A stretch of 64,000 nucleotides of DNA from Deltaproteobacteria bacterium (GTDB lineage Bacteria; Myxococcota_A; UBA9160; UBA4427), in assembly GCA_019310975.1 (NCBI GenBank), contig JAFDDH010000002.1, positions 33,569-97,568 of the forward strand, given 5' to 3'. Of this stretch, positions 1 to 11,410 are shown in pieces. The notes below the pieces were generated by a model. It did not search any database, was not told where the DNA came from, and saw only the letters and a program-made list of their open reading frames with translations. The translations under genes were made by a program, and so were the position numbers. Position 1 is the stretch's first letter, and every line of letters starts with the position of its first letter.

Positions 1-457
1 AGTCGGGATCCTCGGAGTCGAGCATGCTGCGCTCGAGTCCCGCATGCACGAAGACATAGTCGGCCTCGCGGTACCAGAGGCGCAGACCGAGCAGGAAGTC
101 TCGGTGGTCCTTGGGGATCTCGAAGCTGTCACGATCCGGAATCGCGCGATCGAAGTATCCGTAGCTGTCGAGGGTGCGGTCCCCGCCATTCATCAGGAAG
201 GCGTCGCCACCGAAGTAGGCGCGGTCGCTCCAGCCCAGGAAGTCCAGGAACATCGACTCGTGATTGCCCAGGAGGAACGTGCACGGCCATTGCTTCTCGA
301 GACGGATGAGGCAATCCACCACACCGCGGGCGTCCGGCCCGCGGTCCACATAGTCGCCCAGGAAGACCAGGCGGTCGCCCTCTTCCAGGGGCAGCACGGC
401 GAGCAGCTCTTCCAGCTTCCCGCGCTCGCCGTGGATGTCGCCGATGGCGTAGAGCAT
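1..457 (-). CDS. Calcineurin-like metallophosphoesterase (PrpA/ApaH-like Ser/Thr phosphatase), 3' end beyond the window edge
   Basis: Absent from the ORF track because it runs off the edge. My reverse-strand translation from the ATG at 457-455 gives MLYAIGDIHGERGKLEELLAVLPLEEGDRLVFLGDYVDRGPDARGVV...FLLGNHESMF. These are the GDxHG, GDxxDRG and GNHE metallophosphoesterase motifs. Confidence 0.75.
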   Translation of the reverse strand, partial: MLYAIGDIHGERGKLEELLAVLPLEEGDRLVFLGDYVDRGPDARGVVDCLIRLEKQWPCTFLLGNHESMFLDFLGWSDRAYFGGDAFLMNGGDRTLDSYGYFDRAIPDRDSFEIPKDHRDFLLGLRLWYREADYVFVHAGLERSMLDSEDPD

Positions 458-560: not shown

Positions 561-1640
561 TCACGCTTCCGCTGACAGCGGAATCCGGATGCCGCGCCCG
601 GCACCGGCGCCGGCGCCACGAGCGGCCAGCTGACCGCAGGCCGCGTCGATGTCGCCACCGCGGTTGCGGCGCAGGGTGATGCGCAGTCCGCCAGCGTGGG
701 CCGCGGCCGCGAAGGCGTCGCACACGGCGCGCGAGGGCGGCTGGATGGGCGAATCGGCGTGTGGGTTCATCGGGATCAGGTTCAGCTTGGACGGAATCCC
801 GCGCAGCAGGCGCGGCAGGCGGCGCGCATCGTCCAGGGAGTCGTTGATGCCCTGCATCAGGGTGTACTCGAAGAAGACCGGGCGCTTGCGCGAGATGAGA
901 TCGTCGCTGCGCAATGCGCCCAGCAGCTCGTCCAGGGGATAGCGGCGATTCAGCGGCACGAGCTCGTCCCGCACGGCGTCCGTGGTCGCGTGCAGCGAGA
1001 TCGCCAGGTTCACCGGGCCCAGCTCGAGCAGAGGTCGGATCCGCGGTACGATGCCCGAGGTCGACACCGTGATGCGCCGCGGCGCCATGGCGAGGGTTTT
1101 CGGGTCTGTGAGGATGCGGATCGACTCGGCCACGGCAGGCCAGTTGAGCAGCGGCTCGCCCATTCCCATGTACACGATGTTGGTGAGCGTCTCTCCCTGG
1201 TCGAGTGCCTCACGGGCGCGCAGCACTTGGTCGATGATTTCGCCGGCCGACAGGTTGCGCGTGAATCCGAGCGCGCCCGTGGCACAGAACGAGCAGGCCA
1301 GCGGGCAGCCCACCTGAGTCGAGACGCAGAGGGTGTTGCGCCTCTCCTCGGGGATCAACACCGCCTCCACGGTCGCGCCGTCCGGCGCGCGCAGGACAAA
1401 TTTGCGCGTACCGTCCCTGGAGATCTGTACCCGCTCGGTCTCGAGGGCACGCACCGACCAGTTCGCTGCCAGCTCGTCGCGCAGTGTGGCGGGCAGATCC
1501 GTCATCTCGTGCAGATCCTCGACGCCGCGGCCGTAGATCCACGAGAGCACCTGATCGGCCCGCCACGCGGGCAGGCCGGCACGCCGGAAGCGGTCGCGCA
1601 GCACGGGGCGCGAATGACTCTTCAGATTGGGCTGGATCAT
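561..1640 (-). CDS. rlmN: 23S rRNA/tRNA adenine-C2 methyltransferase RlmN (radical SAM)
   Basis: ORF 561..1730. It has the radical-SAM cluster motif GCPLACSFCATG, then MGMGEPL, and the C-terminal GGDIDAACGQL typical of RlmN/Cfr. I prefer the internal ATG at 1640 (MIQPNLKSH...) so that the gene does not overlap trmB. Confidence 0.9.
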   Translation of the reverse strand: MIQPNLKSHSRPVLRDRFRRAGLPAWRADQVLSWIYGRGVEDLHEMTDLPATLRDELAANWSVRALETERVQISRDGTRKFVLRAPDGATVEAVLIPEERRNTLCVSTQVGCPLACSFCATGALGFTRNLSAGEIIDQVLRAREALDQGETLTNIVYMGMGEPLLNWPAVAESIRILTDPKTLAMAPRRITVSTSGIVPRIRPLLELGPVNLAISLHATTDAVRDELVPLNRRYPLDELLGALRSDDLISRKRPVFFEYTLMQGINDSLDDARRLPRLLRGIPSKLNLIPMNPHADSPIQPPSRAVCDAFAAAAHAGGLRITLRRNRGGDIDAACGQLAARGAGAGAGRGIRIPLSAEA

Positions 1641-1660: not shown

Positions 1661-2317
1661 TCAGCCCTCTTCGAGGGCCACGCGGCGACGATACGCGAAG
1701 AAATGTAGCGGCCGGCCGGCCTCGCGCCATTCGACCTCATAGCCCGTGTGCATGCGCCCGGGCACCTCGCACAGCCAGCGCTCGGGCGCGAAGGCGTTCT
1801 CGAGCAGCGGCTCGCTGGCGAGTACCGGGTCGATCTGCTCCGCGTAGGGGACATCATCGGTTGCGACGTGGAGTGTGCCGCCGGAGACGAGACAGAGCGC
1901 GGCGTCGCGTACGAAGTCCGGCTGAATCAGACGCCGTCCGGCGTGACGGTCCTTGGGCCAGGGATCCGAGAAATTGATCCAGATCTCGCGCAGCGAGTCC
2001 TTGCGGATCAGATCCTTCACCACCACCTGCCCACGCGCTTCGAAGAGGCGTACGTTGTCGAAGCCGGCGCGCGCAAGCTTGCGTGCCATCTTGAGTGTGC
2101 GCTTGAACGAGACTTCGACGCCGAGGAACGCCGTGCAGGGCTCCTTGGCGGCGAGATCGAGCAGAAATTCGCCGCGCCCGAAGCCGATTTCCAGCACCAT
2201 TTCGAAGGGCCGCTCGAGCTGTGGCGAAAAGAGCTCCGCCATCCCTTCCACCGCGGCCTCCACGGTCGTACGCCGCCAGTCCTCACCGGGTATCTCGTAC
2301 TTCAGTGATCGCGGCAT
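1661..2317 (-). CDS. trmB: tRNA (guanine46-N7)-methyltransferase TrmB
   Basis: This is the C-terminal 218 aa of ORF 1661..2767, starting at MPRSLKYEIPGEDW (ATG at 2317-2315). SAM-binding motif VLEIGFGRGEF, plus INFSDPWPK and a TGYEVEW tail typical of TrmB. The upstream part of the ORF is Arg/Ala-rich junk. Confidence 0.9.
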   Translation of the reverse strand: MPRSLKYEIPGEDWRRTTVEAAVEGMAELFSPQLERPFEMVLEIGFGRGEFLLDLAAKEPCTAFLGVEVSFKRTLKMARKLARAGFDNVRLFEARGQVVVKDLIRKDSLREIWINFSDPWPKDRHAGRRLIQPDFVRDAALCLVSGGTLHVATDDVPYAEQIDPVLASEPLLENAFAPERWLCEVPGRMHTGYEVEWREAGRPLHFFAYRRRVALEEG

Positions 2318-2345: not shown

Positions 2346-3974
2346 TCAGCGCAGCATCCCGCGGCCGGCCTTCCACGAGCCCGTCGTACCGAAGAGCATC
2401 CCCGCCCACTCGGGGAGACGCGGCACCCTGGGCAGGAGAGCCAGCGTATAGCGTTCGTGCGGCTGCAGCCCGGCGCGTGTGGCGAGGTCGCGCAACGCCT
2501 CGAGCGGACCTCCGAGAGCGTCCACGAGCCCCAGCGCCTGGGCGCGGCGTCCGCTCCAGATGCGACCCTGGGCGATCTTTTCGACGTCCTCGCGGCTCTT
2601 CGAGCGGCCCTTGGCGACGCGATCGAGGAATGTGCCATAGATGGCCTGCATCTCGCGCCGCACAGCCGCGCGCTCATCGGAATTGAAGCCACGCGCCTCG
2701 GAGAGCATGCCGGCGCGCGCGCCCTGCTGAACACCCTCCTTCGAGATACCGAGCCGCTCGTACACACCCGCCAGGTTGATCTTGCCGCCGACGACGCCGA
2801 TCGAGCCGGTCACCGTGCCCGACTCTGCGAAGACCTGATCGGCTGCCGCCGCAATGTAGTAGCCACCCGACGCCACGACCTCGCCCATCGAAACCACCAC
2901 CGGCTTCTCGCGCCCAAGCTGCTCGACACGTCGGTGAATCAGATCCGAAGCCAGCGCGTCGCCCCCGCCGCTGTCGATGCGCAGTGCCACACCGCGCACT
3001 CGCGGATCCTCGCGTAGAGCGGCGAGCAATCCGCCCATGCCGCCCGAGGTGATACCGCGAAAGCCCTCTCCACTGCGCACGCCGCCCTCGGCCAAGAGGT
3101 AGACGAGCGCGGGCCGATCCCGGAAGATCGGCACGAAGCCGGGATCCATTACATGGGCCAAGAAGTAGTCGACGGCGGGGAGCAGGTGGACACGCCGCGG
3201 GCCGCGCGCGCCAGGCCGTGGCGCCCTTGCAAGGGGCTCGAGGCGCTTCTCGATCTCGTCGGCATACACGAGTGCGTCGACGAGTCCCGTCTCCACAGCG
3301 GCAGCCGCCGAGTAGGGACCGGTATCGATCAGATCTCGCACGGTCGACGGCTCCAGCGAGCGACCGAGCGCGATACCCGTGACGAGGTCTTCCCACACGT
3401 CGGCCTGCCAGCTCTCGACCTGCTCGCGCTCCTCGTCGGACATCGAGTCGCGTGTAAAGGTCTCGCCCGCGCTCTTGAACTTGCCCACGTGGACGACTTC
3501 GGGCTTGGCGCCGATGCGGTCCAATACGTCGCGCAGGTAGTAGCGCTCGGTGCGCAGGCCGACGAGGAAGAGGTTGCCGCTCTCTGGCATCCAGATGCGA
3601 TCGGCCGCCGTGGCAACGAGATAGGGGAAGGCCGCCATGCTCTCGGCGAAGACCGCCACGCGCTTTCCCTTCGCCCTCAACTCACCGAGTGCCCGGCGCA
3701 AGGAGAGCGCGTGCGAGAAGCGGCCGATATTGCCGCGCAGACGCAGGAGCACGCCATCCACGCGATGATCGTCCCCCGCGGCCTCGATGCAGCGCAGGGT
3801 GTCGAGCAGCCCCAGGGTCGACGGGCGCCCGAAGCCGATATGGCTGCGCTCCGCCAAATCACCTTCGATGTCGAGCACGATCCAATTGCCCGAATCCGCC
3901 GCAAACACGCGGCCCAACGCCACGCGACGCACCACGCGCGTCCCATTCGCGAAGGTCCTTCGCAGGGCGCCCAA
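2346..3974 (-). CDS. sppA: Signal peptide peptidase SppA (S49 family, two-domain type)
   Basis: 542 aa with two ClpP/crotonase-like S49 halves. The second half has VVSMGEVVASGGYYIAAAADQVFAE, the Ser nucleophile region. Its start lies 2 nt after the stop of the upstream vWA gene. Confidence 0.8.
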   Translation of the reverse strand: MGALRRTFANGTRVVRRVALGRVFAADSGNWIVLDIEGDLAERSHIGFGRPSTLGLLDTLRCIEAAGDDHRVDGVLLRLRGNIGRFSHALSLRRALGELRAKGKRVAVFAESMAAFPYLVATAADRIWMPESGNLFLVGLRTERYYLRDVLDRIGAKPEVVHVGKFKSAGETFTRDSMSDEEREQVESWQADVWEDLVTGIALGRSLEPSTVRDLIDTGPYSAAAAVETGLVDALVYADEIEKRLEPLARAPRPGARGPRRVHLLPAVDYFLAHVMDPGFVPIFRDRPALVYLLAEGGVRSGEGFRGITSGGMGGLLAALREDPRVRGVALRIDSGGGDALASDLIHRRVEQLGREKPVVVSMGEVVASGGYYIAAAADQVFAESGTVTGSIGVVGGKINLAGVYERLGISKEGVQQGARAGMLSEARGFNSDERAAVRREMQAIYGTFLDRVAKGRSKSREDVEKIAQGRIWSGRRAQALGLVDALGGPLEALRDLATRAGLQPHERYTLALLPRVPRLPEWAGMLFGTTGSWKAGRGMLR

Positions 3975-3976
3975 GC

Positions 3977-5590
3977 TCAGCTCCTGCGCAGCCTACGGTG
4001 GGAGATGTAATCCACCATGAGGAAGGAGGAAAGCTGGTGGGGCCGAGTGTAGAAGGCCCGGCCCCTGTTGATCTGCGTCATGCGCTCCACGAAGCCCATC
4101 AGCTCCGGAGCGTCGTCGAGCATGAAGGTGTTGATCGTGATGCCTTGCTGGGTGATGCGGCGCACCTGCTTGAGCGTCTCCGCAACGGCATGCGGAGAGA
4201 CGCCGCCCATGCCCATGGGCCATTCGACCCGCAGCTGCTTGTCCTCGAAGTAGGCAGTGGGCTGACCGTCGGTAATGACCAGGATCTGGGGCGTGGCGCT
4301 GCGGTGCCGCTGGATCACCCGTTCGGCCACCATCAGGCCCTCCTGCAGGTTCGTGAATGGATCCCCCATATCCCAACAGACCTCGGGCAGCTCGCGAATC
4401 GGCAGCTCGCGCGCGCGGGTCGAGAAGCCCACCACCGAGAAGTGGTCGCGCGGAAACTGCGTGCGAATCAGCTGATCCATCGCCAGCGCGACCCGCTTGG
4501 CGGCGGGGAAGCGATCCGCCCACGACATCGACCAGCTCATGTCGAGCAAGAGAACCGTCGTGGTCTGGGTGCTGAAGTCCATCTCCCGAACCTCGAAGTC
4601 GTCCACCGACAGATCGACTCGGCGTACGCTCTTGCCACCCTCGGCGGCGCGACGCTTCACACCGTTCATCACGGTCTTCACGATGTCGATGTTGAGTGGG
4701 TCACCGAACACCCACGGCCGCGTTTCGTCGGGGCGCGGCATCGCCACGCCATAGCTCGGCGTGTCGTGCTCGCCCGCCAGGCCCTTGCGCAGCACGTTGT
4801 AGACATCGGCCAGTGCTGAGGCGCCAATCTTGCGAATCGCCTTGGGCGTGAGCTCACCATCGCGCAGCAGGCCGGCGCGGGACATATTGGATTCGAGATC
4901 ACGCAGGAGTACGAAGGACTGGGCGGCCGGATCGCCGAGCATTTCGCGCAGCTGGTCGGGGCTGATGGACTCGAAGTTGCCTTCGGCGAGATCCTGTGCC
5001 ATCTGCGAGAGCGCCTCGACCTGCTCTCGGATCTGCTGTGCGGTCTCGTAGTCGGCCTCTTCCGGGCCGCGAAAGCGCTGGCCCTGCTGCTGCAAGAAGT
5101 CCTCGAGCGCGCGCATGCGCTCGAGTTCCTCAGCGAGCTCGTGGAAGTCCTGCTCGGCGTCCCCGTCCTCCCAGGTGTAATCATCGAATTGTGCGATCGC
5201 CTGGGAGACCTGCGTCGATTCGGCGTGGCGCCGGCTCATGAAGTCATTCATGCGGGCCGAATCCAGGCCGTGCTCTCCCTGCATGGCGCTCTGCTCGCGA
5301 TCCAGAATCTCGTCGAGGCGCTCGCGGATCTCGTTCATCGAGTTCTGCAGGTCGTAGCGCTGCTGCAGCTCGCGGATCTGGTCGCGCAGCTCCTTCAAGA
5401 GCTCGTCGATTCCCATCACGCGCATATCGAGGCCGCCGAGCTCGAAGCCGTACTGTCGCATCCACTCCAGTGCCTGGCGGGCATCGAGGCCCTCCATCAT
5501 CAGCTCGGAGAGTGAATCCAGCGCTCGATCGACATCGAGACTGAACTGCTCGAGACTGCCGTCCCACTGGCTGTAGCGGAATGTCTTCAT
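3977..5590 (-). CDS. von Willebrand factor A (vWA) domain protein with an intact MIDAS motif
   Basis: 537 aa. The N-terminal half is long, acidic and coiled-coil-like. The C-terminal vWA fold has LLLDMSWSMS (the DxSxS MIDAS motif) and later ILVITDGQPT. It overlaps the upstream AAA+ gene by 4 nt. Confidence 0.8.
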   Translation of the reverse strand: MKTFRYSQWDGSLEQFSLDVDRALDSLSELMMEGLDARQALEWMRQYGFELGGLDMRVMGIDELLKELRDQIRELQQRYDLQNSMNEIRERLDEILDREQSAMQGEHGLDSARMNDFMSRRHAESTQVSQAIAQFDDYTWEDGDAEQDFHELAEELERMRALEDFLQQQGQRFRGPEEADYETAQQIREQVEALSQMAQDLAEGNFESISPDQLREMLGDPAAQSFVLLRDLESNMSRAGLLRDGELTPKAIRKIGASALADVYNVLRKGLAGEHDTPSYGVAMPRPDETRPWVFGDPLNIDIVKTVMNGVKRRAAEGGKSVRRVDLSVDDFEVREMDFSTQTTTVLLLDMSWSMSWADRFPAAKRVALAMDQLIRTQFPRDHFSVVGFSTRARELPIRELPEVCWDMGDPFTNLQEGLMVAERVIQRHRSATPQILVITDGQPTAYFEDKQLRVEWPMGMGGVSPHAVAETLKQVRRITQQGITINTFMLDDAPELMGFVERMTQINRGRAFYTRPHQLSSFLMVDYISHRRLRRS

Positions 5591-6999
5591 GCTTTCTGAA
5601 AGCGCACGCGGCCCTCGGACTCGCTCTTGTTGAGCGCGTTGGAGAGATGCAGACCCTCGAGTATGAACTCGATCGCGGAAGCCAGTCGCGGCGGCGAGTC
5701 GCCACCCACGAGCGCGACAGCCGCCTCGCGCAGCCCGGTGATCTCGTCGAGGCCCTCGAGATACTCGACGGCCCGGAGATCAGCCGAAACTTCGACCTGC
5801 CAGCCGGCGTCGAAGGCCTCTACCGCAGAGGCGAGCGCCTCGACGCTCGTGCGCTCTTCGAAGACGCGGCGACAGGCTCGACGCACCAGGCCGTCGAGCA
5901 GATCTTCGTCCGTGGTGTCCGCGCCGGCGTACTCGAGCTCGATCTTGCCCGTGGTGGACGAAAGCAATGCCGCCAGGTCGCTCACGCGCGGAACGGCCTC
6001 GGCCTCGCCATTGCGTAGCGCGCGCCGAATGGCGTTCGCCAGCAGCGTCTCGTAGTTGGCGATGCTCATGCGTACAGAGACGCCCGAGGCCTGACTCACG
6101 TCGGGGCTGCTGCGCGCCTCGAAGGTCATCTCACCCACCACGTCCTCCATGAAGCCGGGCACGTGGAGAGCCACGCCGGGCACGTCGGGCAGCGTCACCT
6201 CCTGGCGTGTGATGGCGAGCTCGATGGCGCGGGTGGGGGGATAGTGGGTGCGGATCTGCGCCGCGTAGCGGTCCTTGAGCGGTGTAATGATGCGCCCGCG
6301 GCTCGTGTAGTCCTCGGGATTTGCGCTGGCCACCACCAGCACGTCCAACGGCAGGCGGACGTTGTAGCCCTTGATCTGGATGTCGCGCTCCTCCATCACG
6401 TTGAACAACCCGACCTGCACTTTTTCCGTCAAGTCGGGCAACTCATTGATGCAGAAGATGCCGCGATGGGCGCGCGGCAGGAGACCGAAGTGGATCGTGT
6501 ACTCGTCCGAGAGGTGGCGCCCTTCCGCCACCTTGATGGGATCGACGTCGCCGATCAGATCCGCGATCGAGACGTCGGGCGTGGCGAGCTTCTCGCTATA
6601 GCGACGCGCGCGGTGCAACCAGTCGATCTCGGTCTTTTCGCCCTGGCTCTCGACGATCTCGCGACCGAAAGCGGAAACCGGCTCCAGCGGGTCGTCGGGG
6701 ATCTCGCTACCGGCCACCACGGGTACCCACTCGTCGAGCAGATTGGTGAGCGAGCGGATCATGCGCGACTTCGCCTGTCCGCGCTCGCCGAGAAAGATCA
6801 GGTCGTGGCCGCAGAGGAGCGCATTCTCGACCGCTGGGACCACCGTCTCGTCGTAGCCGTGAATGCCCGGAAAGAGTTCCCGCCCGTCGCGCAGGTGCGC
6901 GAGCAGGTTGGCCAGGATCTCTTCGCGCAGGCTGCGGTGGACATAGCCCGACCGACGGAGCTCGCCGAGGGTGCGGGGGGTGGGTGGCGCGCTTTGCAT
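5587..6999 (-). CDS. AAA+ ATPase, ChlI/BchI (Mg-chelatase)-like or MoxR-like
   Basis: 470 aa. Walker A is LIFLGERGQAKS. The Walker B region is GIFCINELPDL followed by VQVGLFNVMEERDIQIKG, which resembles ChlI/BchI-family ATPases. It is translationally coupled to the vWA gene. Confidence 0.8.
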   Translation of the reverse strand: MQSAPPTPRTLGELRRSGYVHRSLREEILANLLAHLRDGRELFPGIHGYDETVVPAVENALLCGHDLIFLGERGQAKSRMIRSLTNLLDEWVPVVAGSEIPDDPLEPVSAFGREIVESQGEKTEIDWLHRARRYSEKLATPDVSIADLIGDVDPIKVAEGRHLSDEYTIHFGLLPRAHRGIFCINELPDLTEKVQVGLFNVMEERDIQIKGYNVRLPLDVLVVASANPEDYTSRGRIITPLKDRYAAQIRTHYPPTRAIELAITRQEVTLPDVPGVALHVPGFMEDVVGEMTFEARSSPDVSQASGVSVRMSIANYETLLANAIRRALRNGEAEAVPRVSDLAALLSSTTGKIELEYAGADTTDEDLLDGLVRRACRRVFEERTSVEALASAVEAFDAGWQVEVSADLRAVEYLEGLDEITGLREAAVALVGGDSPPRLASAIEFILEGLHLSNALNKSESEGRVRFQKA

Positions 7000-7024
7000 G
7001 GGGCCTCCGGGCGGCGAATCGCCC

Positions 7025-8215
7025 TCAGTCGGACGATCCGCTTTGCTGTCCTCCGTTCTTGCGGAGCGATTCGACGACGTGTCGGATCACCAGGAGCACC
7101 GAGCCCTCCAGCGTGATGTTGTCGACGATGGGGACGTCGTGGTGCTCGGCGAGCTCCAGCAGGTGCTCCTGGATCTTCATGATCTCGTCCATGCGCTTCA
7201 CATATCTGTCCGCTTCGCGCTGGCGCTGGCGCTCGGCGCGCGCAACGAAGTGGTTGCGAAATGCCTCCTCGTCGAGGCGGGCGACCAGCAGGAAGAACAC
7301 ATGGGCGTACTGCTGGTAGGGCTCGAGGTCGATCAACCCGGGCACCAGCGACACGCCGTCGAGCACGAGACTCGTATTCTCCTCGATCGCTCGATCGAGG
7401 ATGGCTCGAACACCCACCGATACGATCGAGGTCTGCGCCATGAAGCCCTCGACCACAGGGTCCTCTTCGCGCGTGTGCATGGCGATCCCGCGGTGCGCAT
7501 CGAACGAGGAGGCGTGCAGAGCAGGCATCAGCTCCTGTGAGAGGATGATGCGCATGACGTGGCGGATCGAGTCGGTGGAGAGCACACGGCTGATGCCCAG
7601 ACGCTGGGCCACCTCCAGTGCCAATGAAGTCTTGCCCACACCGCTGGTGCCTCCGAGGAGGATGATGACCGGTCTCTCGGGCTCCTGGAATTCGCGCCAC
7701 ACCAGGTAGCGTCCGGCGGTGCGGCGGCCAAAGCGCTCCAGCAGAGTCGCATGGGAGAGGTCGCGCAGCTGCGCACGCGTCACCTCCTGCCGGCCGCGCC
7801 GGATCAGCTCGAGCTCGATCTCGCGTGCGACGTCGAAGGCGTCATCCGGCTCCAGAGATGCCGCCAGCAGCGACTGCGAGAGCGTGCCCTTCGAAAAGGG
7901 CGTGCTGCGCCTGCCGCGCACGACGCTCAATCTGATCGGTGTCGGGATCGGGGGCTGGTGGTCGTAGTCCTCACCCACCAGGTCCTGCACGATCTTGGAG
8001 AGCTCGGAGCGCTGCAACCTGCGCCGCCCGCGGATCTGCTCGGCCACTGCATGTGCGGTCGCATAGGCATCCTCGAAGGAAACACCGCGCGCCATCAGCG
8101 AGTGGACCATGATGCCGCGCATATAGGGCCGCTCGATACCGCCGTCCTCGACTACGAGGACTCGCTTCGTGTCCTTCTTATGCGGTCCCTTCGGAGCATC
8201 TCGCTCATCCGGCAT
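7025..8215 (-). CDS. ATP-cone domain protein fused to a 2-phosphoglycerate-kinase-like P-loop kinase
   Basis: 396 aa. There are two N-terminal ATP-cone-like segments (VLVVEDGGIERPYMRGIMVHSL..., LSVVRGRRSTPFSKGTLSQSLL...). These are followed by the P-loop ILLGGTSGVGKTSLALEVAQRLGISRVLSTDSIR, typical of the 2-PGK family. Confidence 0.7.
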   Translation of the reverse strand: MPDERDAPKGPHKKDTKRVLVVEDGGIERPYMRGIMVHSLMARGVSFEDAYATAHAVAEQIRGRRRLQRSELSKIVQDLVGEDYDHQPPIPTPIRLSVVRGRRSTPFSKGTLSQSLLAASLEPDDAFDVAREIELELIRRGRQEVTRAQLRDLSHATLLERFGRRTAGRYLVWREFQEPERPVIILLGGTSGVGKTSLALEVAQRLGISRVLSTDSIRHVMRIILSQELMPALHASSFDAHRGIAMHTREEDPVVEGFMAQTSIVSVGVRAILDRAIEENTSLVLDGVSLVPGLIDLEPYQQYAHVFFLLVARLDEEAFRNHFVARAERQRQREADRYVKRMDEIMKIQEHLLELAEHHDVPIVDNITLEGSVLLVIRHVVESLRKNGGQQSGSSD

Positions 8216-8678
8216 GCAGCCACCTTAAGGCCTGATGGTTCGTTCGCGCCAGCGTGACAGGTCTGGGCCTGCAGAGCAGACTCCGCAGCGCGGCCCGGCG
8301 AAGCGTAGCTCGATCGCCACATCCGGACCGAGGCCTGCCCGTGGGACAGATTGTCCGACCCGACTGGCCAGACATTACCCGGAGGAATTTGGTTCGAAAC
8401 CCTCGAACGGCACAATTTGCCGGTTTTTTGGGTTGACTAAACCCGATTCAGGGCCTTAGCTCAATGTTGACGGGAAGATGGGTCACCTGGGATCACCGCC
8501 GAGACGGCGTTCTGCGCGGATTGCCAGGTGTGGACCAGGGGCCTTTGAGGAAATGGGCTGACCGTCCACCGCTGGGTCGGCACACCGGGCCACGTGGAGG
8601 CGGGTTGGTCCCTGCGCCGGATGACGACCGGGACGACTGGGCAGACACGCGGATCGAGTGGCATGGAGGACGAGCGAA

Positions 8679-9191
8679 ATGGGCTCGATGTCGACACAAG
8701 AGCAGATGCGCGCGGTCTCGGGACCCGCGACACAGGATCTCTACCGCACCAAGGAAGTCGTGCAGATCCTCTCCATCTCGAGGCGCCAGCTCCAGTATTG
8801 GTCCCAGACAGATCTCGTCGTGCCCTCAGTCAAGACCAACGGCGGGCACCATCGCTACACGTTCGAGGATCTCGTCGCCCTCAAGGCGACCAAACGGCTG
8901 ATCGACGCCGGGGTCTCGGTGCAACGCATTCGCAGTAGCATCCAGGCGCTGCGGCGCATGCTGCCGAAGGTGGCGAGACCGCTCTCGGAGCTGACGCTCG
9001 TGGCGACGGGCGATGTCGTGCTCGTCTTCCACGACGACACGGTCTTCGAGGCGGTGACCGGACAGGAGTGGGTCTTCGAGGTGGCCCAATTCGAGCGCGA
9101 GCTCGAGACCTGGCGCGGGCTGCGCACGGCCCGACCGGTGCGGCGAGCTGCGCCAGGTGAACGGACTTCGGCCGCCGTGCGACCGGCATAG
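8679..9191 (+). CDS. MerR-family HTH transcriptional regulator
   Basis: ORF 8658..9191. It contains LYRTKEVVQILSISRRQLQYWSQTDLVVPSVKTNGGHHRYTFEDLVALKATKRLIDAGVSVQRIR, a MerR-type winged HTH. I prefer the ATG at 8679, which lies 8 nt after GGAGGA (8665-8670). Confidence 0.75.
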   Translation: MGSMSTQEQMRAVSGPATQDLYRTKEVVQILSISRRQLQYWSQTDLVVPSVKTNGGHHRYTFEDLVALKATKRLIDAGVSVQRIRSSIQALRRMLPKVARPLSELTLVATGDVVLVFHDDTVFEAVTGQEWVFEVAQFERELETWRGLRTARPVRRAAPGERTSAAVRPA

Positions 9192-9423: not shown

Positions 9424-10506
9424 ATGCGAGTGATCAGCATCGTCAACCAGAAGGGGGGTTGTGGAAAGACAACCACCACGGTCAATCTCGCCGGTGCGCT
9501 CGCGCGAGACGGCGCGAGCGTGCTCGTGGTCGACATGGATCCCCAAGCCCACGCGACCCTTGCACTGGGTATCGATCCGGACGAACTCTCGGAGAATCTC
9601 TACGAGGTCCTGGCCGAGCCCGGTGGCACCGACCAGCTCTCTCGCATCCTCATCAACGTAGCGGAGCGAATCGATCTCGCGCCGTCGAGCATCGTGCTCT
9701 CTGCGCTGGAGCAGAAGCTGGCCGCTGAGCGGCACAACGCCCGGACCGAGCGCCTGGCCTCGGCGCTCGACGCGATGCCTACGCGCTACGACTTCGTCGT
9801 GATCGACTGTCCGCCTGCAGTCAGCCTGCTCACCTTCAATGCGCTCCGCGCTTCCAGTGAGGTGATCATCCCGCTCGAGACGAGCTTCTTCGCCATCGAT
9901 GGTGTGCAGAAGCTGCTCGAGACCATCGCGTTGCTGACGGATCGCATCGGACACGACCTGACGGTACGCGTGCTACCCACGCTCTACGATGGCCGCACCC
10001 GCTACGCACGGCAGACCCTGGGCGACATCCGCGAGCTCTTCAAGGATCTCTGCTTCGACTCGGTGATCCGCATGAACGTCAAGCTCCGCGAGGCCGCGAG
10101 ACACGGCAAGACCATCGATCGCTACGCCGCATCGGCCAACGGCGCTCTGGACTACGCGTCCGTCGCCATGGAGCTCGCCGCTAGCCCACCGGACTTCCGA
10201 CAGGCCGACGCGGCCGATGACACGCAATCGCCCGAACCGCTCGAGGTCGTGGTCCGCTTCCGCGATGAGGCGGCGGGGGACGTGCGCATCGCCGGCGATT
10301 TCAATGGCTGGGTACCCGACAAAGGCGTGCGCTCCAGCATCGAGGCGGAAGGGCCTGCGAGGGTGTGGACGAAGGTGTTGACGCTCTCGCCCGGCACCTA
10401 TCAATACCGATACATCGTGGACGGCGAGTGGCGGGTGGATCCCGAGAACCCAGAGTCCACGCCGGGTCCGATGGGCCAGCCCAACTCCGTCCTCCACGTG
10501 AGCTAG
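9424..10506 (+). CDS. ParA/Soj-family ATPase fused to a C-terminal CBM48 (AMPK-beta-type glycogen-binding) domain
   Basis: 360 aa. The N-terminus MRVISIVNQKGGCGKTTTTVNLAGALA has the deviant Walker A KGGxGKT. It continues through VVDMDPQ and DFVVIDCPP (Walker B). The C-terminal ~90 aa read VVVRFRDEAAGDVRIAGDFNGWVPDK...WTKVLTLSPGTYQYRYIVDGEWRVDPENP...NSVLHV, matching the AMPK1_CBM/CBM48 pattern. An AAGGGGGGA RBS precedes the ATG. Confidence 0.85.
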   Translation: MRVISIVNQKGGCGKTTTTVNLAGALARDGASVLVVDMDPQAHATLALGIDPDELSENLYEVLAEPGGTDQLSRILINVAERIDLAPSSIVLSALEQKLAAERHNARTERLASALDAMPTRYDFVVIDCPPAVSLLTFNALRASSEVIIPLETSFFAIDGVQKLLETIALLTDRIGHDLTVRVLPTLYDGRTRYARQTLGDIRELFKDLCFDSVIRMNVKLREAARHGKTIDRYAASANGALDYASVAMELAASPPDFRQADAADDTQSPEPLEVVVRFRDEAAGDVRIAGDFNGWVPDKGVRSSIEAEGPARVWTKVLTLSPGTYQYRYIVDGEWRVDPENPESTPGPMGQPNSVLHVS

Positions 10507-10516
10507 GATCTCGGCA

Positions 10517-11410
10517 TTGCCGCGCGATCTATCGGAAGTGCTGCACTACTTCATGCCCGAGCTGGGGCACGAGGAGGGCTCTCCGGCCATGCTGGGACCT
10601 GCTGCGCCCGCGCGCACAGAGGATGTCCGGCCCGGGCTTCCCAGAGAGAGCCCAATGCGCGTGCGCCCGACCTCCGGCCGCGCGACCCAGGAGGCGCGCC
10701 GCACGGCGCGCAAGAATCTCTCCTTGCTGCCGATCGTGACGATGCCGATCGGGGACGGCGACGTCGTGCGAGCGGCCTTCGCCTGGAATCTGGCCGTGGA
10801 GGTGGCGCGTCTGGGCGGCCGCGCGGTGCTGATCACGCCCGACCGAGATGATCCCTCACCGCTCTGGCCCGAGGCGGGCATCGGACCGCTCGGCGCGGAG
10901 CTGATGCCCGCCCCGGCACGCGACCTGACCTCCCTCTACCGCACCGCCGTCGACACAGCGGTCTCGCGTGCCGACGGCGCCACCGACGGCGGCTTGGTCC
11001 TCGTACACGTACCACCCGAGTGGCTGCACAATCCGGGGAGCGGCAGTCCCCTGCTGCGCTGGACGCTGCTCTTCACCACGTCGCACGCGCAGGATCTGAG
11101 AGAGACATACGCGATCGCGAAGCTCGTGCTGGGCTCGAATCCCCAGGCGCAGGTCGGTATTACGATCCACGGCGCGCGCGGGCGCGCCGAGGCGGAAGCT
11201 GCCTTTTCACGTCTCGCCCAAGCGGCGCAGAGATGTCTATCGCGCGACCTGCTGAGCTATGGGCTGCTGGTGGATGATCTCCACGTCTATCGGGCCATCG
11301 TCGCGCAGCGCCCGATTGGTCTCGAACACCCACAATCGCCCGCCGCGCGGGCTCTTCGCGACGTCGCCCAGATGCTCTTGGACGACGCGCGGAAGCACAC
11401 CCTTGCCTGA
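10517..11410 (+). CDS. MinD/ParA/FlhG-like protein with a degenerate Walker A (predicted pseudo-ATPase)
   Basis: 297 aa. The segment LLPIVTMPIGDGDVVRAAFAWNLAVEVARLGGRAVLITPD aligns by eye to the MinD pattern (IAVxSGKGGVGKTTxxxNLAxxLAxxGxxVLLIDAD), but GKGGVGKT is replaced by IGDGDVVR. It keeps a Walker-B-like LVLVHVPPE and a C-terminal MinD/FlhG-like LLSYGLLVDDLHVYRAIVAQRPIGLEHPQSPAARAL. Confidence 0.55.
   Translation: MPRDLSEVLHYFMPELGHEEGSPAMLGPAAPARTEDVRPGLPRESPMRVRPTSGRATQEARRTARKNLSLLPIVTMPIGDGDVVRAAFAWNLAVEVARLGGRAVLITPDRDDPSPLWPEAGIGPLGAELMPAPARDLTSLYRTAVDTAVSRADGATDGGLVLVHVPPEWLHNPGSGSPLLRWTLLFTTSHAQDLRETYAIAKLVLGSNPQAQVGITIHGARGRAEAEAAFSRLAQAAQRCLSRDLLSYGLLVDDLHVYRAIVAQRPIGLEHPQSPAARALRDVAQMLLDDARKHTLA

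Follow-up and report, generated by a model that had tools for sequence, protein, structure and literature searches.

What is the functional unit in a row of three genes that codes for a homolog of a small-molecule kinase, an ATPase and a protein with a metal-binding adhesion site? The question is raised by a 64,000-nt stretch of a Deltaproteobacteria bacterium (Myxococcota_A, UBA9160, UBA4427; contig JAFDDH010000002.1, positions 33,569 to 97,568), called here the window. On its minus strand, positions 3977 to 8215 carry, in the order of transcription, a P-loop kinase resembling 2-phosphoglycerate kinase (2PGK) (7025..8215, 396 aa), an ATPase of the AAA+ class (ATPases associated with diverse cellular activities) and of the Rv0958 family (5587..6999, 470 aa), and a von Willebrand factor A (vWA) protein of the Rv0959 family with a metal-ion-dependent adhesion site, or MIDAS (3977..5590, 537 aa). 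A sequence-only reading of this stretch took the kinase to be the obligatory third partner in a stoichiometric triad. We favor, with moderate confidence, a functional unit made of the AAA+/vWA pair, a two-gene module of the Rv0958/Rv0959 family acting as a remodeling machine; the 2PGK-like kinase would be a lineage-specific neighbor in the operon and not an obligatory subunit.

The arrangement itself was described correctly: the three genes stand head to tail on the minus strand with a 25-nt gap, a 4-nt overlap and SppA 2 nt further on. Read from the sequence, the TGA of the kinase gene is followed by a 25-nt spacer (7000..7024, minus strand) that carries a Shine-Dalgarno GGAGG ahead of the ATG of the AAA+ gene, the AAA+ and vWA genes overlap in ATGA, and the TGA of the vWA gene is separated by 2 nt from the TTG start of SppA. 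The kinase gene has its own Shine-Dalgarno (AAGGTG) 5 nt ahead of its ATG. Translational coupling, proposed for the whole triad, is thus supported by the ATGA overlap at the AAA+/vWA junction but not between kinase and AAA+, where the spacer has a Shine-Dalgarno of its own. Profile searches also bear out the domains assigned to the three proteins (ATP-cone and 2PGK-like kinase, ChlI-like AAA+, acidic vWA protein with an intact MIDAS).

A scan with the AAA+ protein over one genome per GTDB species gives 80 loci. Synteny in these loci is called by tblastn with the window proteins, the gene caller based on length and GC content being noisy in high-GC DNA from antisense open reading frames. A vWA gene lies downstream from the AAA+ gene, on the same strand, in 73 of the 80 loci, over about ten phyla (the loci are from Myxococcota, Binatia, Chloroflexota, Bacillota, Thermodesulfobacteriota, Acidobacteriota, Gemmatimonadota, Ignavibacteria and others), and in many loci the two matches abut or share a coordinate. 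Annotated replicons extend the range of the pair to Thermomicrobium and to the actinomycetes Tsukamurella, Nocardia and Nonomuraea. A word-index search gives at least 8000 candidates for the AAA+ protein, as against 3134 for its vWA partner and 1225 for the kinase. The AAA+/vWA pairing seen in the window is real, tightly coupled and, as the sequence-only reading held, outside characterized pathways.

In Tsukamurella, the pair is on the same strand as purN-purH, about 3 kb (four genes) downstream; the AAA+ protein is ∼49% identical to that of the window, and the vWA protein aligns over its full length (31% identity, E 3e-45). The map of Mycobacterium tuberculosis, which we take to run purN (Rv0956), purH (Rv0957) and then Rv0958–Rv0959, has presumably the same order. 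The numbering context also draws on PMC7092591 and PMC11237697. Rv0958 (“possible magnesium chelatase”) and Rv0959 (conserved hypothetical), with their orthologs, have the same two-gene arrangement, the genes overlapping or nearly so, and the Rv0959-type orthologs share full-length homology with the window protein, which covers the helical domain and the MIDAS as well as the RY..W/Y.G motif near the N terminus. Differences exist: the actinobacterial vWA proteins are longer (∼660–700 aa against 537 aa), and the actinobacterial pairs have no 2PGK-like gene upstream and other neighbors (as purN-purH in Tsukamurella). The Prokaryotic Genome Annotation Pipeline (PGAP) names such orthologs “sigma 54-interacting transcriptional regulator” and “VWA domain-containing protein.” On this homology, the pair can be assigned to a catalogued but functionally uncharacterized family, Rv0958/Rv0959.

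The surroundings of the pair vary between lineages. In Binatia and in metagenome-assembled genomes (MAGs) labeled “Deltaproteobacteria” (L050, L057, L061, L062, L065), it lies between aroA-cmk-rpsA-HU-HIT and mutS-amiC. In a Planctomycetaceae MAG (L066:5707-10741), a Ser/Thr protein kinase of 1192 aa with Ig-like domains is encoded after the AAA+ gene, where the vWA gene would be expected; in another Planctomycetaceae locus (L073), a 630-aa protein with no Pfam match occupies the vWA position. In Thermomicrobium roseum (L081:7057-7965), the gene directly upstream of the pair, labeled “type II secretion system protein E,” codes for a P-loop protein of 302 aa; this protein was considered as a 2PGK-like kinase and ruled out, having no homology to it and no Pfam match. 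Genes for M48 peptidases recur beside the AAA+ gene, or the AAA+/vWA genes, in three phyla, which may be chance, the subfamilies being different: in Dehalococcoidia, the place of the vWA gene, directly after the AAA+ gene, is taken by an HtpX gene, and in Gemmatimonadota, an M48 gene lies near the pair on the opposite strand (M48 genes are at L054:7509-8378, L074:5833-7257 and L077:10878-11945).

The AAA+ protein of the window has a Walker A motif G71-E-R-G-Q-A-K77-S, a Walker B motif with N185-E186 (NELPDL), the sensor-1 residue N227, R244 and SGVSxR310, and its C-terminal helical domain ends in a conserved EFxLEGLHL. In an alignment of 17 AAA+ sequences from about ten phyla, with 49–58% identity across phyla, GxRGQxK[ST], NELPDL, the sensor-1 Asn, the Arg of PLKDR, SGVSxR and sensor-2 are invariant. 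The Walker B motif of the family is, unusually, N-E and not D-E, again invariantly in the 17 sequences. Pfam matches are weak (Mg_chelatase, MCM, AAA_5, Sigma54_activat, AAA_3). With the MoxR-type models, AAA_3 (23.4 vs. 27) and bpMoxR (16 vs. 27) remain under threshold, and of AAA_3, bpMoxR and AAA_5 the generic AAA_5 alone passes (29.6 vs. 22). The best solved relative by sequence is ChlI (E 2e-9). In the predicted model (predicted local distance difference test, 82), the best folds are ChlI/BchI, LonB, MCM, MoxR/RavA and NorQ, at 12–20% identity. The public labels for this AAA+ protein (window 5587-6999; L081:7992-9392; L082:7953-9365) are “sigma 54-interacting transcriptional regulator” (RefSeq/PGAP) and “magnesium chelatase subunit I” (Joint Genome Institute); both are probably over-annotations from weak AAA+ domain matches, since DNA-binding and receiver domains are both lacking and the scores are far under the chelatase cutoffs. 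One relative of 631 aa (P0019) is an internally duplicated AAA+ protein and not a fusion with a kinase.

From the N to the C terminus, the vWA protein has a RYSxWDG motif, a helical domain of acidic character, a linker that is disordered and the vWA domain itself (∼340–537, with VWA_2 of Pfam at residues 345–443). The MIDAS residues are D350, S352 and S354 (D-x-S-x-S), T413 and D441. Residues 60–240 are helical and acidic (43 D+E against 18 K+R, pI 4.3), and over the N-terminal 300 residues, all-helical and acidic, there is no AAA match. Precomputed Pfam assignments for a 100% identical protein (P0241) give Mb0984_helical, Rv0959_3rd and VWA_2 (PF27532, PF27098 and PF13519). The DxSxS…T…D residues are kept in every aligned vWA partner (about 18 from other phyla), and the RYSxWDG motif is likewise conserved. 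With Foldseek, the predicted model best matches NorD in the NorQD complex, the MIDAS domain of Rea1 and generic vWA domains. In Acidobacteriota, Gemmatimonadota and Ignavibacteria (L068, L069, L075, L076, L077, L080), the vWA partner is shorter (∼370–430 aa), with a MIDAS of the DCSHSMILYGEDRF type and a different N-terminal region, which suggests two subfamilies of Rv0959-like proteins.

Does the kinase belong to this module? Seen from the pair, a kinase gene lies upstream in 48 of the 80 loci, and these 48 all fall within a single Myxococcota clade; its AAA+ proteins are at least 62% identical to that of the window, and kinase identity goes down to 45%. In exactly those 48 loci, the upstream genes (hypothetical protein, ParA-like, MerR) and the downstream trmB-rlmN are equally conserved, and a block of ∼12 kb is syntenic. 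Because these flanking genes are kept in the same loci, the link of the kinase to the pair is no better conserved than the links to unrelated housekeeping genes. A gene for a BepA-like M48 peptidase stands between kinase and ATPase in 20 of the 48 (e.g., L040:5082-5939). The SppA gene is absent after the pair in about ten loci of the clade and follows the pair in one locus without kinase (L036). No kinase gene is found within 6 kb of the pair in other Myxococcota (Polyangiales-type) or in any other phylum sampled; the phyla with a pair and no adjoining kinase are Binatia, Chloroflexota, Bacillota, Thermodesulfobacteriota, Acidobacteriota, Gemmatimonadota, Ignavibacteria, Planctomycetota and Actinomycetota. 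The sequence-only reading had named a lack of synteny in related genomes as the finding that would speak against its triad, and outside this one Myxococcota clade the synteny is indeed lost.

Seen from the kinase, the picture is the same. An exhaustive search of representatives gives about 1000 clusters at E ≤ 1e-10, and a metagenome scan with the consensus of distant two-cone members gives 80 loci (29–54% identity). In none of these 80 is a homolog of the AAA+ or vWA protein found near the kinase, and no fusion of the kinase with either protein (a Rosetta-stone link) occurs among the sampled homologs. As an obligatory subunit, then, the kinase fails from both sides. Its distant relatives have other partners. 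Directly after the kinase gene, 18 of the 48 kinase-side loci of at least 5 kb have a gene for a phosphoglycerate mutase, cofactor-independent and of the ApgM type (TIGR00306, 334 bits where 320 are required). Kinase and mutase are fused in L142 and L162 (843 aa), and several representatives are probably further kinase–mutase fusions, judged by their length (795–841 aa). The kinase-apgM clusters (e.g., L084:1016-3522, L142:6863-9394, L097:2680-4836, L088:4914-6872 and L110:2437-4462, within the set L084–L163) lie among pstSCAB-like, phoU, pitA/PhoU_div, ppk2 and terC genes. None of the ApgM and phosphate partner genes is present in the window. This context hints at a bacterial pathway, as yet unstudied, from 3-phosphoglycerate through 2-phosphoglycerate to 2,3-bisphosphoglycerate (or a similar one) tied to phosphate homeostasis. 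In plants, the 2PGK homolog LPA1 affects the storage of phytate phosphorus.

The kinase of the window derives from this family, which elsewhere works with the ApgM-type mutase and the phosphate-homeostasis genes. An ATP-cone at residues 102–178 passes the Pfam cutoff (33.7 bits vs. 25.8), with the P-loop downstream, and the kinase domain (∼180–390) has the Walker A motif GGTSGVGKTS. The first of the two ATP-cone-like segments proposed by the sequence-only reading, at residues 17–95, has no Pfam match; since the equivalent segment of distant relatives clears the ATP-cone threshold, it is best taken as a degenerate second cone. Against the NCBIfam model of 2-phosphoglycerate kinase (PRK04220), the protein scores 320 bits, just under the cutoff of 343, and against PRK12337, 310 bits where 603 are required, as would be expected of a diverged 2PGK family member below the equivalog level. 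The architecture of ATP-cone and P-loop kinase is common to the window protein and to the archaeal 2-phosphoglycerate kinase of the cyclic 2,3-diphosphoglycerate (cDPG) pathway, whose relatives include the mevalonate-3-phosphate 5-kinase of Thermoplasma and plant LPA1. The window protein differs by its score below the equivalog cutoff, by the extra, degenerate N-terminal cone, and by a context without ApgM, phosphate genes or cDPG synthetase. It differs also at one motif residue. Among 28 positions conserved to at least 90% in the rest of the 2PGK-like family, 27 are kept in the clade of the window; the exception is the His in (E/D)G(V/I)H, a motif that lies just past the Walker-B-like strand. 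In the window kinase, Ser289 (codon at 7349-7351) stands in for this His.

How might the two-gene module act? By analogy with BchI–BchD, CobS–CobT, NorQ–NorD, CbbQ–CbbO and RavA–ViaA, the ATPase would form a ring, the vWA protein would dock on this ring with the metal site of its MIDAS holding an acidic residue of a client protein, and ATP hydrolysis would remodel the client or mature its metal center. No third gene travels with the pair, and for that reason the client, if there is one, is probably a widespread housekeeping protein or complex encoded elsewhere in the genome.

Several observations weigh against a two-gene machine with the kinase as mere neighbor. In the loci inspected, no third gene accompanies the pair across phyla, and, with neither a client nor a conserved third gene found, the remodeling model rests on analogy. 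Asn replaces the Walker B Asp of the ATPase, where ATP hydrolysis is plausible. The literature that mentions Rv0958, Rv0959 or MSMEG_5512 does so at the level of annotation, with no functional characterization; one published pull-down that touches these proteins gives no DNA association. Within its clade, moreover, the kinase gene is always present, co-oriented with the pair and closely spaced, and the 45 scorable kinase genes adjacent to a pair all have S, N, A or T at position 289, whereas the His is retained in 78 of 80 nonadjacent ones (one His-less nonadjacent exception, L159, is a short contig from the clade of the window itself). These last points favor a triad that is real in this clade: the AAA+/vWA machine would have taken on the 2PGK-like protein, now without its His, as a partner that senses nucleotides. 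The ATP-cones of this protein could then serve as a gate for the machine, or its kinase domain could act on a ligand or on the client. Such a triad also agrees with the co-orientation of the kinase gene across its 25-nt spacer (with its own Shine-Dalgarno), with its position upstream of the pair in all 48 loci of the clade, down to 45% kinase identity, with a kinase in which position 289 alone has changed among the 28 conserved ones, with surroundings that have lost ApgM and the phosphate genes, and with the known design of ternary MoxR–vWA systems that have a third component (PMC7159879). The change of context and the change of a probable active-site residue would have arisen together, which fits neofunctionalization, possibly tied to the pair. 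But the arrangement has a single evolutionary origin, and the association of His loss with adjacency to the pair counts as one event of little weight; conservation extends equally to the upstream genes and to the housekeeping genes at the flanks, the M48 gene splits kinase from ATPase in 20 loci, every other lineage has the pair without the kinase, and no fusions occur among the sampled homologs. We regard a triad restricted to the clade as unlikely, if credible, and we are more doubtful of its most specific form, in which a His-less 2PGK-family kinase became the nucleotide-gated (ATP-cone) third component of an Rv0958/Rv0959 AAA+–MIDAS machine in one uncultured Myxococcota clade. If true, this would be a ternary system in which an ATP-driven remodeling complex is under the control of a small-molecule kinase or of the product of that kinase.

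For the pair itself, the known systems nearest in architecture are the motors of class I metal chelatases and the MoxR–vWA chaperones, and it is neither a bona fide Mg- or Co-chelatase nor a typical MoxR pair. With BchI/ChlI–BchD/ChlD and CobS–CobT, it shares an AAA+ protein of the pre-sensor-1/helix-2-insert superclade and a partner with an acidic region and a C-terminal vWA/MIDAS domain. The pair could thus be the ATPase motor (I/D- or CobS/CobT-like) of a class I metal chelatase with an unlinked CobN/BchH-type subunit, with cobalt insertion as one example: among solved structures, ChlI comes nearest to the AAA+ protein, TIGR02442 (putative cobaltochelatase) weakly matches both proteins, the acidic region and vWA domain resemble the C-terminal half of BchD or CobT, and in a screen for B12 resistance in M. 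marinum a transposon insertion lies 49 bp upstream of the ortholog (PMC11237697). The scores of 29–37 bits are, however, far from the equivalog cutoffs of 467–780 (29 vs. 467 for TIGR02030 and 33 vs. 779 for TIGR02442 with the AAA+ protein), the vWA protein lacks the N-terminal AAA-like half of BchD, and the Walker B motif is NE where the chelatases have DE. No H/CobN subunit is found in the window or related loci (there is no open reading frame of at least 1000 aa in the 64-kb window, and no conserved large neighbor in the 82 loci inspected), and the pair occurs among housekeeping genes and in phyla without known phototrophs, so that a chelatase motor seems quite improbable. The MoxR pairs (NorQ–NorD, CbbQ–CbbO, RavA–ViaA, CoxD–CoxE) follow the same logic, an ATPase gene and then a gene for a vWA/MIDAS adaptor, and the predicted models match NorQ and NorD in Foldseek; but AAA_3 stays under threshold, RavA/ViaA are not detectably closer than other AAA+ families, and no client or effector gene adjoins the pair.

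The AAA+ gene followed by a gene for a vWA-like MIDAS protein is also the order in the PrkA/YeaG–YhbH/YeaH module (with SpoVR/YcgB), and a proteolysis or stress module of that kind, feeding or unfolding substrates for the neighboring proteases (M48, SppA), is another reading. The similarity is remote but the best obtained with hhalign, where the AAA+ profile reaches E. coli YeaG with 89% probability over 224 columns (RavA, 26% over 28 columns) and the vWA profile reaches YeaH at E 6e-4 (29% probability), with no match to ViaA; AAA_PrkA matches 10 of the 17 members (best E 4e-7), TIGR02877 (yhbH) matches the vWA protein at E 0.0025, the fold also matches LonB, Myxococcota, Gemmatimonadota and Dehalococcoidia have M48 genes beside the pair, and even in the kinase-less L036 the next gene after the pair is SppA. 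Every one of these similarities is nevertheless under the family threshold (AAA_PrkA on the window protein, 11 bits vs. 25; TIGR02877, 17 vs. 468) and no stronger than those to ChlI, MoxR, NtrC and MCM. The window AAA+ protein stops at 470 aa, without the kinase-like C-terminal domain of PrkA, and there is no SpoVR gene in the loci. The M48 genes do not form one subfamily (some are BepA-like, others HtpX), and most loci have no protease nearby. We hold this reading to be improbable. An exclusive kinship with PrkA/YeaG–YeaH was itself set aside as no more than a lead, as in the Pfam scan of the 17 members AAA_PrkA is no stronger than Mg_chelatase, AAA_5, Sigma54 or MCM. Finally, bpMoxR weakly matches 13 of the 17 members and Myxococcota are rich in MoxR–vWA ternary systems (PMC7159879), which would be in line with an anti-phage or conflict system of this type. 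The locus differs from those systems (Kaur et al. 2020) in its third gene, a homolog of small-molecule kinases that is not conserved with the pair; PADLOC models give P-loop-level noise (E 2e-4 or worse), effector domains are absent, the composition of the locus has no marked anomaly, and the cross-phylum conservation is very high, among housekeeping neighbors (aroA-cmk-rpsA…mutS, with purN-purH nearby in some). A role in defense is extremely improbable.

Around the three genes, the window has on the same strand SppA (peptidase S49 of the two-domain 67K type, 2346..3974, 542 aa), the downstream neighbor in the operon, followed by two co-directional housekeeping genes, TrmB (1661..2317, tRNA m7G46 methyltransferase family) and RlmN (561..1640, radical SAM rRNA/tRNA methyltransferase), and by the 5′ part of a calcineurin-like phosphoesterase gene (Metallophos, 2..457) that is cut by the start of the window. 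A 99.75% identical public contig shows eight co-directional genes, in the order kinase, AAA+, vWA, SppA, TrmB, RlmN, Metallophos and a small Imm_superinfect-like gene, with gaps of 25, −4, 2, 28, 20, 103 and 5 nt. The row that the sequence-only reading called a seven-gene operon is therefore co-directional as it said, with an eighth gene added. A single operon from the kinase to the Imm_superinfect-like gene is plausible, since the genes are closely spaced on one strand and a terminator scan of the locus gives hairpins no more numerous than in shuffled sequence.

Upstream, an intergenic region (8216..8678), the presumed site of both promoters, separates the kinase gene from a divergently transcribed gene for a MerR-family regulator (8679..9191, plus strand), whose place ahead of the kinase gene is conserved over most of the clade. 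This regulator is a candidate for the control of the operon. A scan of 8216..8678 with the sigma-70 consensus gives no match, and a search of this divergent promoter region for an operator of the HspR/HAIR type gives no convincing inverted repeat. Further upstream, a ParA/MinD-like ATPase fused to a C-terminal, glycogen-binding AMPK1_CBM domain (9424-10506, plus strand) is kept across the whole clade, and next to it 10517-11410 codes for a 297-aa protein with no Pfam match.

The sequence-only reading thus holds in what it observed and in part in what it proposed. The results argue against propagating the chelatase, σ54 and 2PGK annotations to these proteins, and those from the kinase side suggest an unexplored bacterial pathway of phosphoglycerate and phosphate. 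That the conserved unit is a pair and not a triad points experiments to tractable models, such as MSMEG_5512 and the downstream vWA gene in M. smegmatis. The pair, present in M. tuberculosis and with orthologs ∼50% identical between Myxococcota and Actinomycetota, is among the more strongly conserved bacterial gene pairs without an assigned function.

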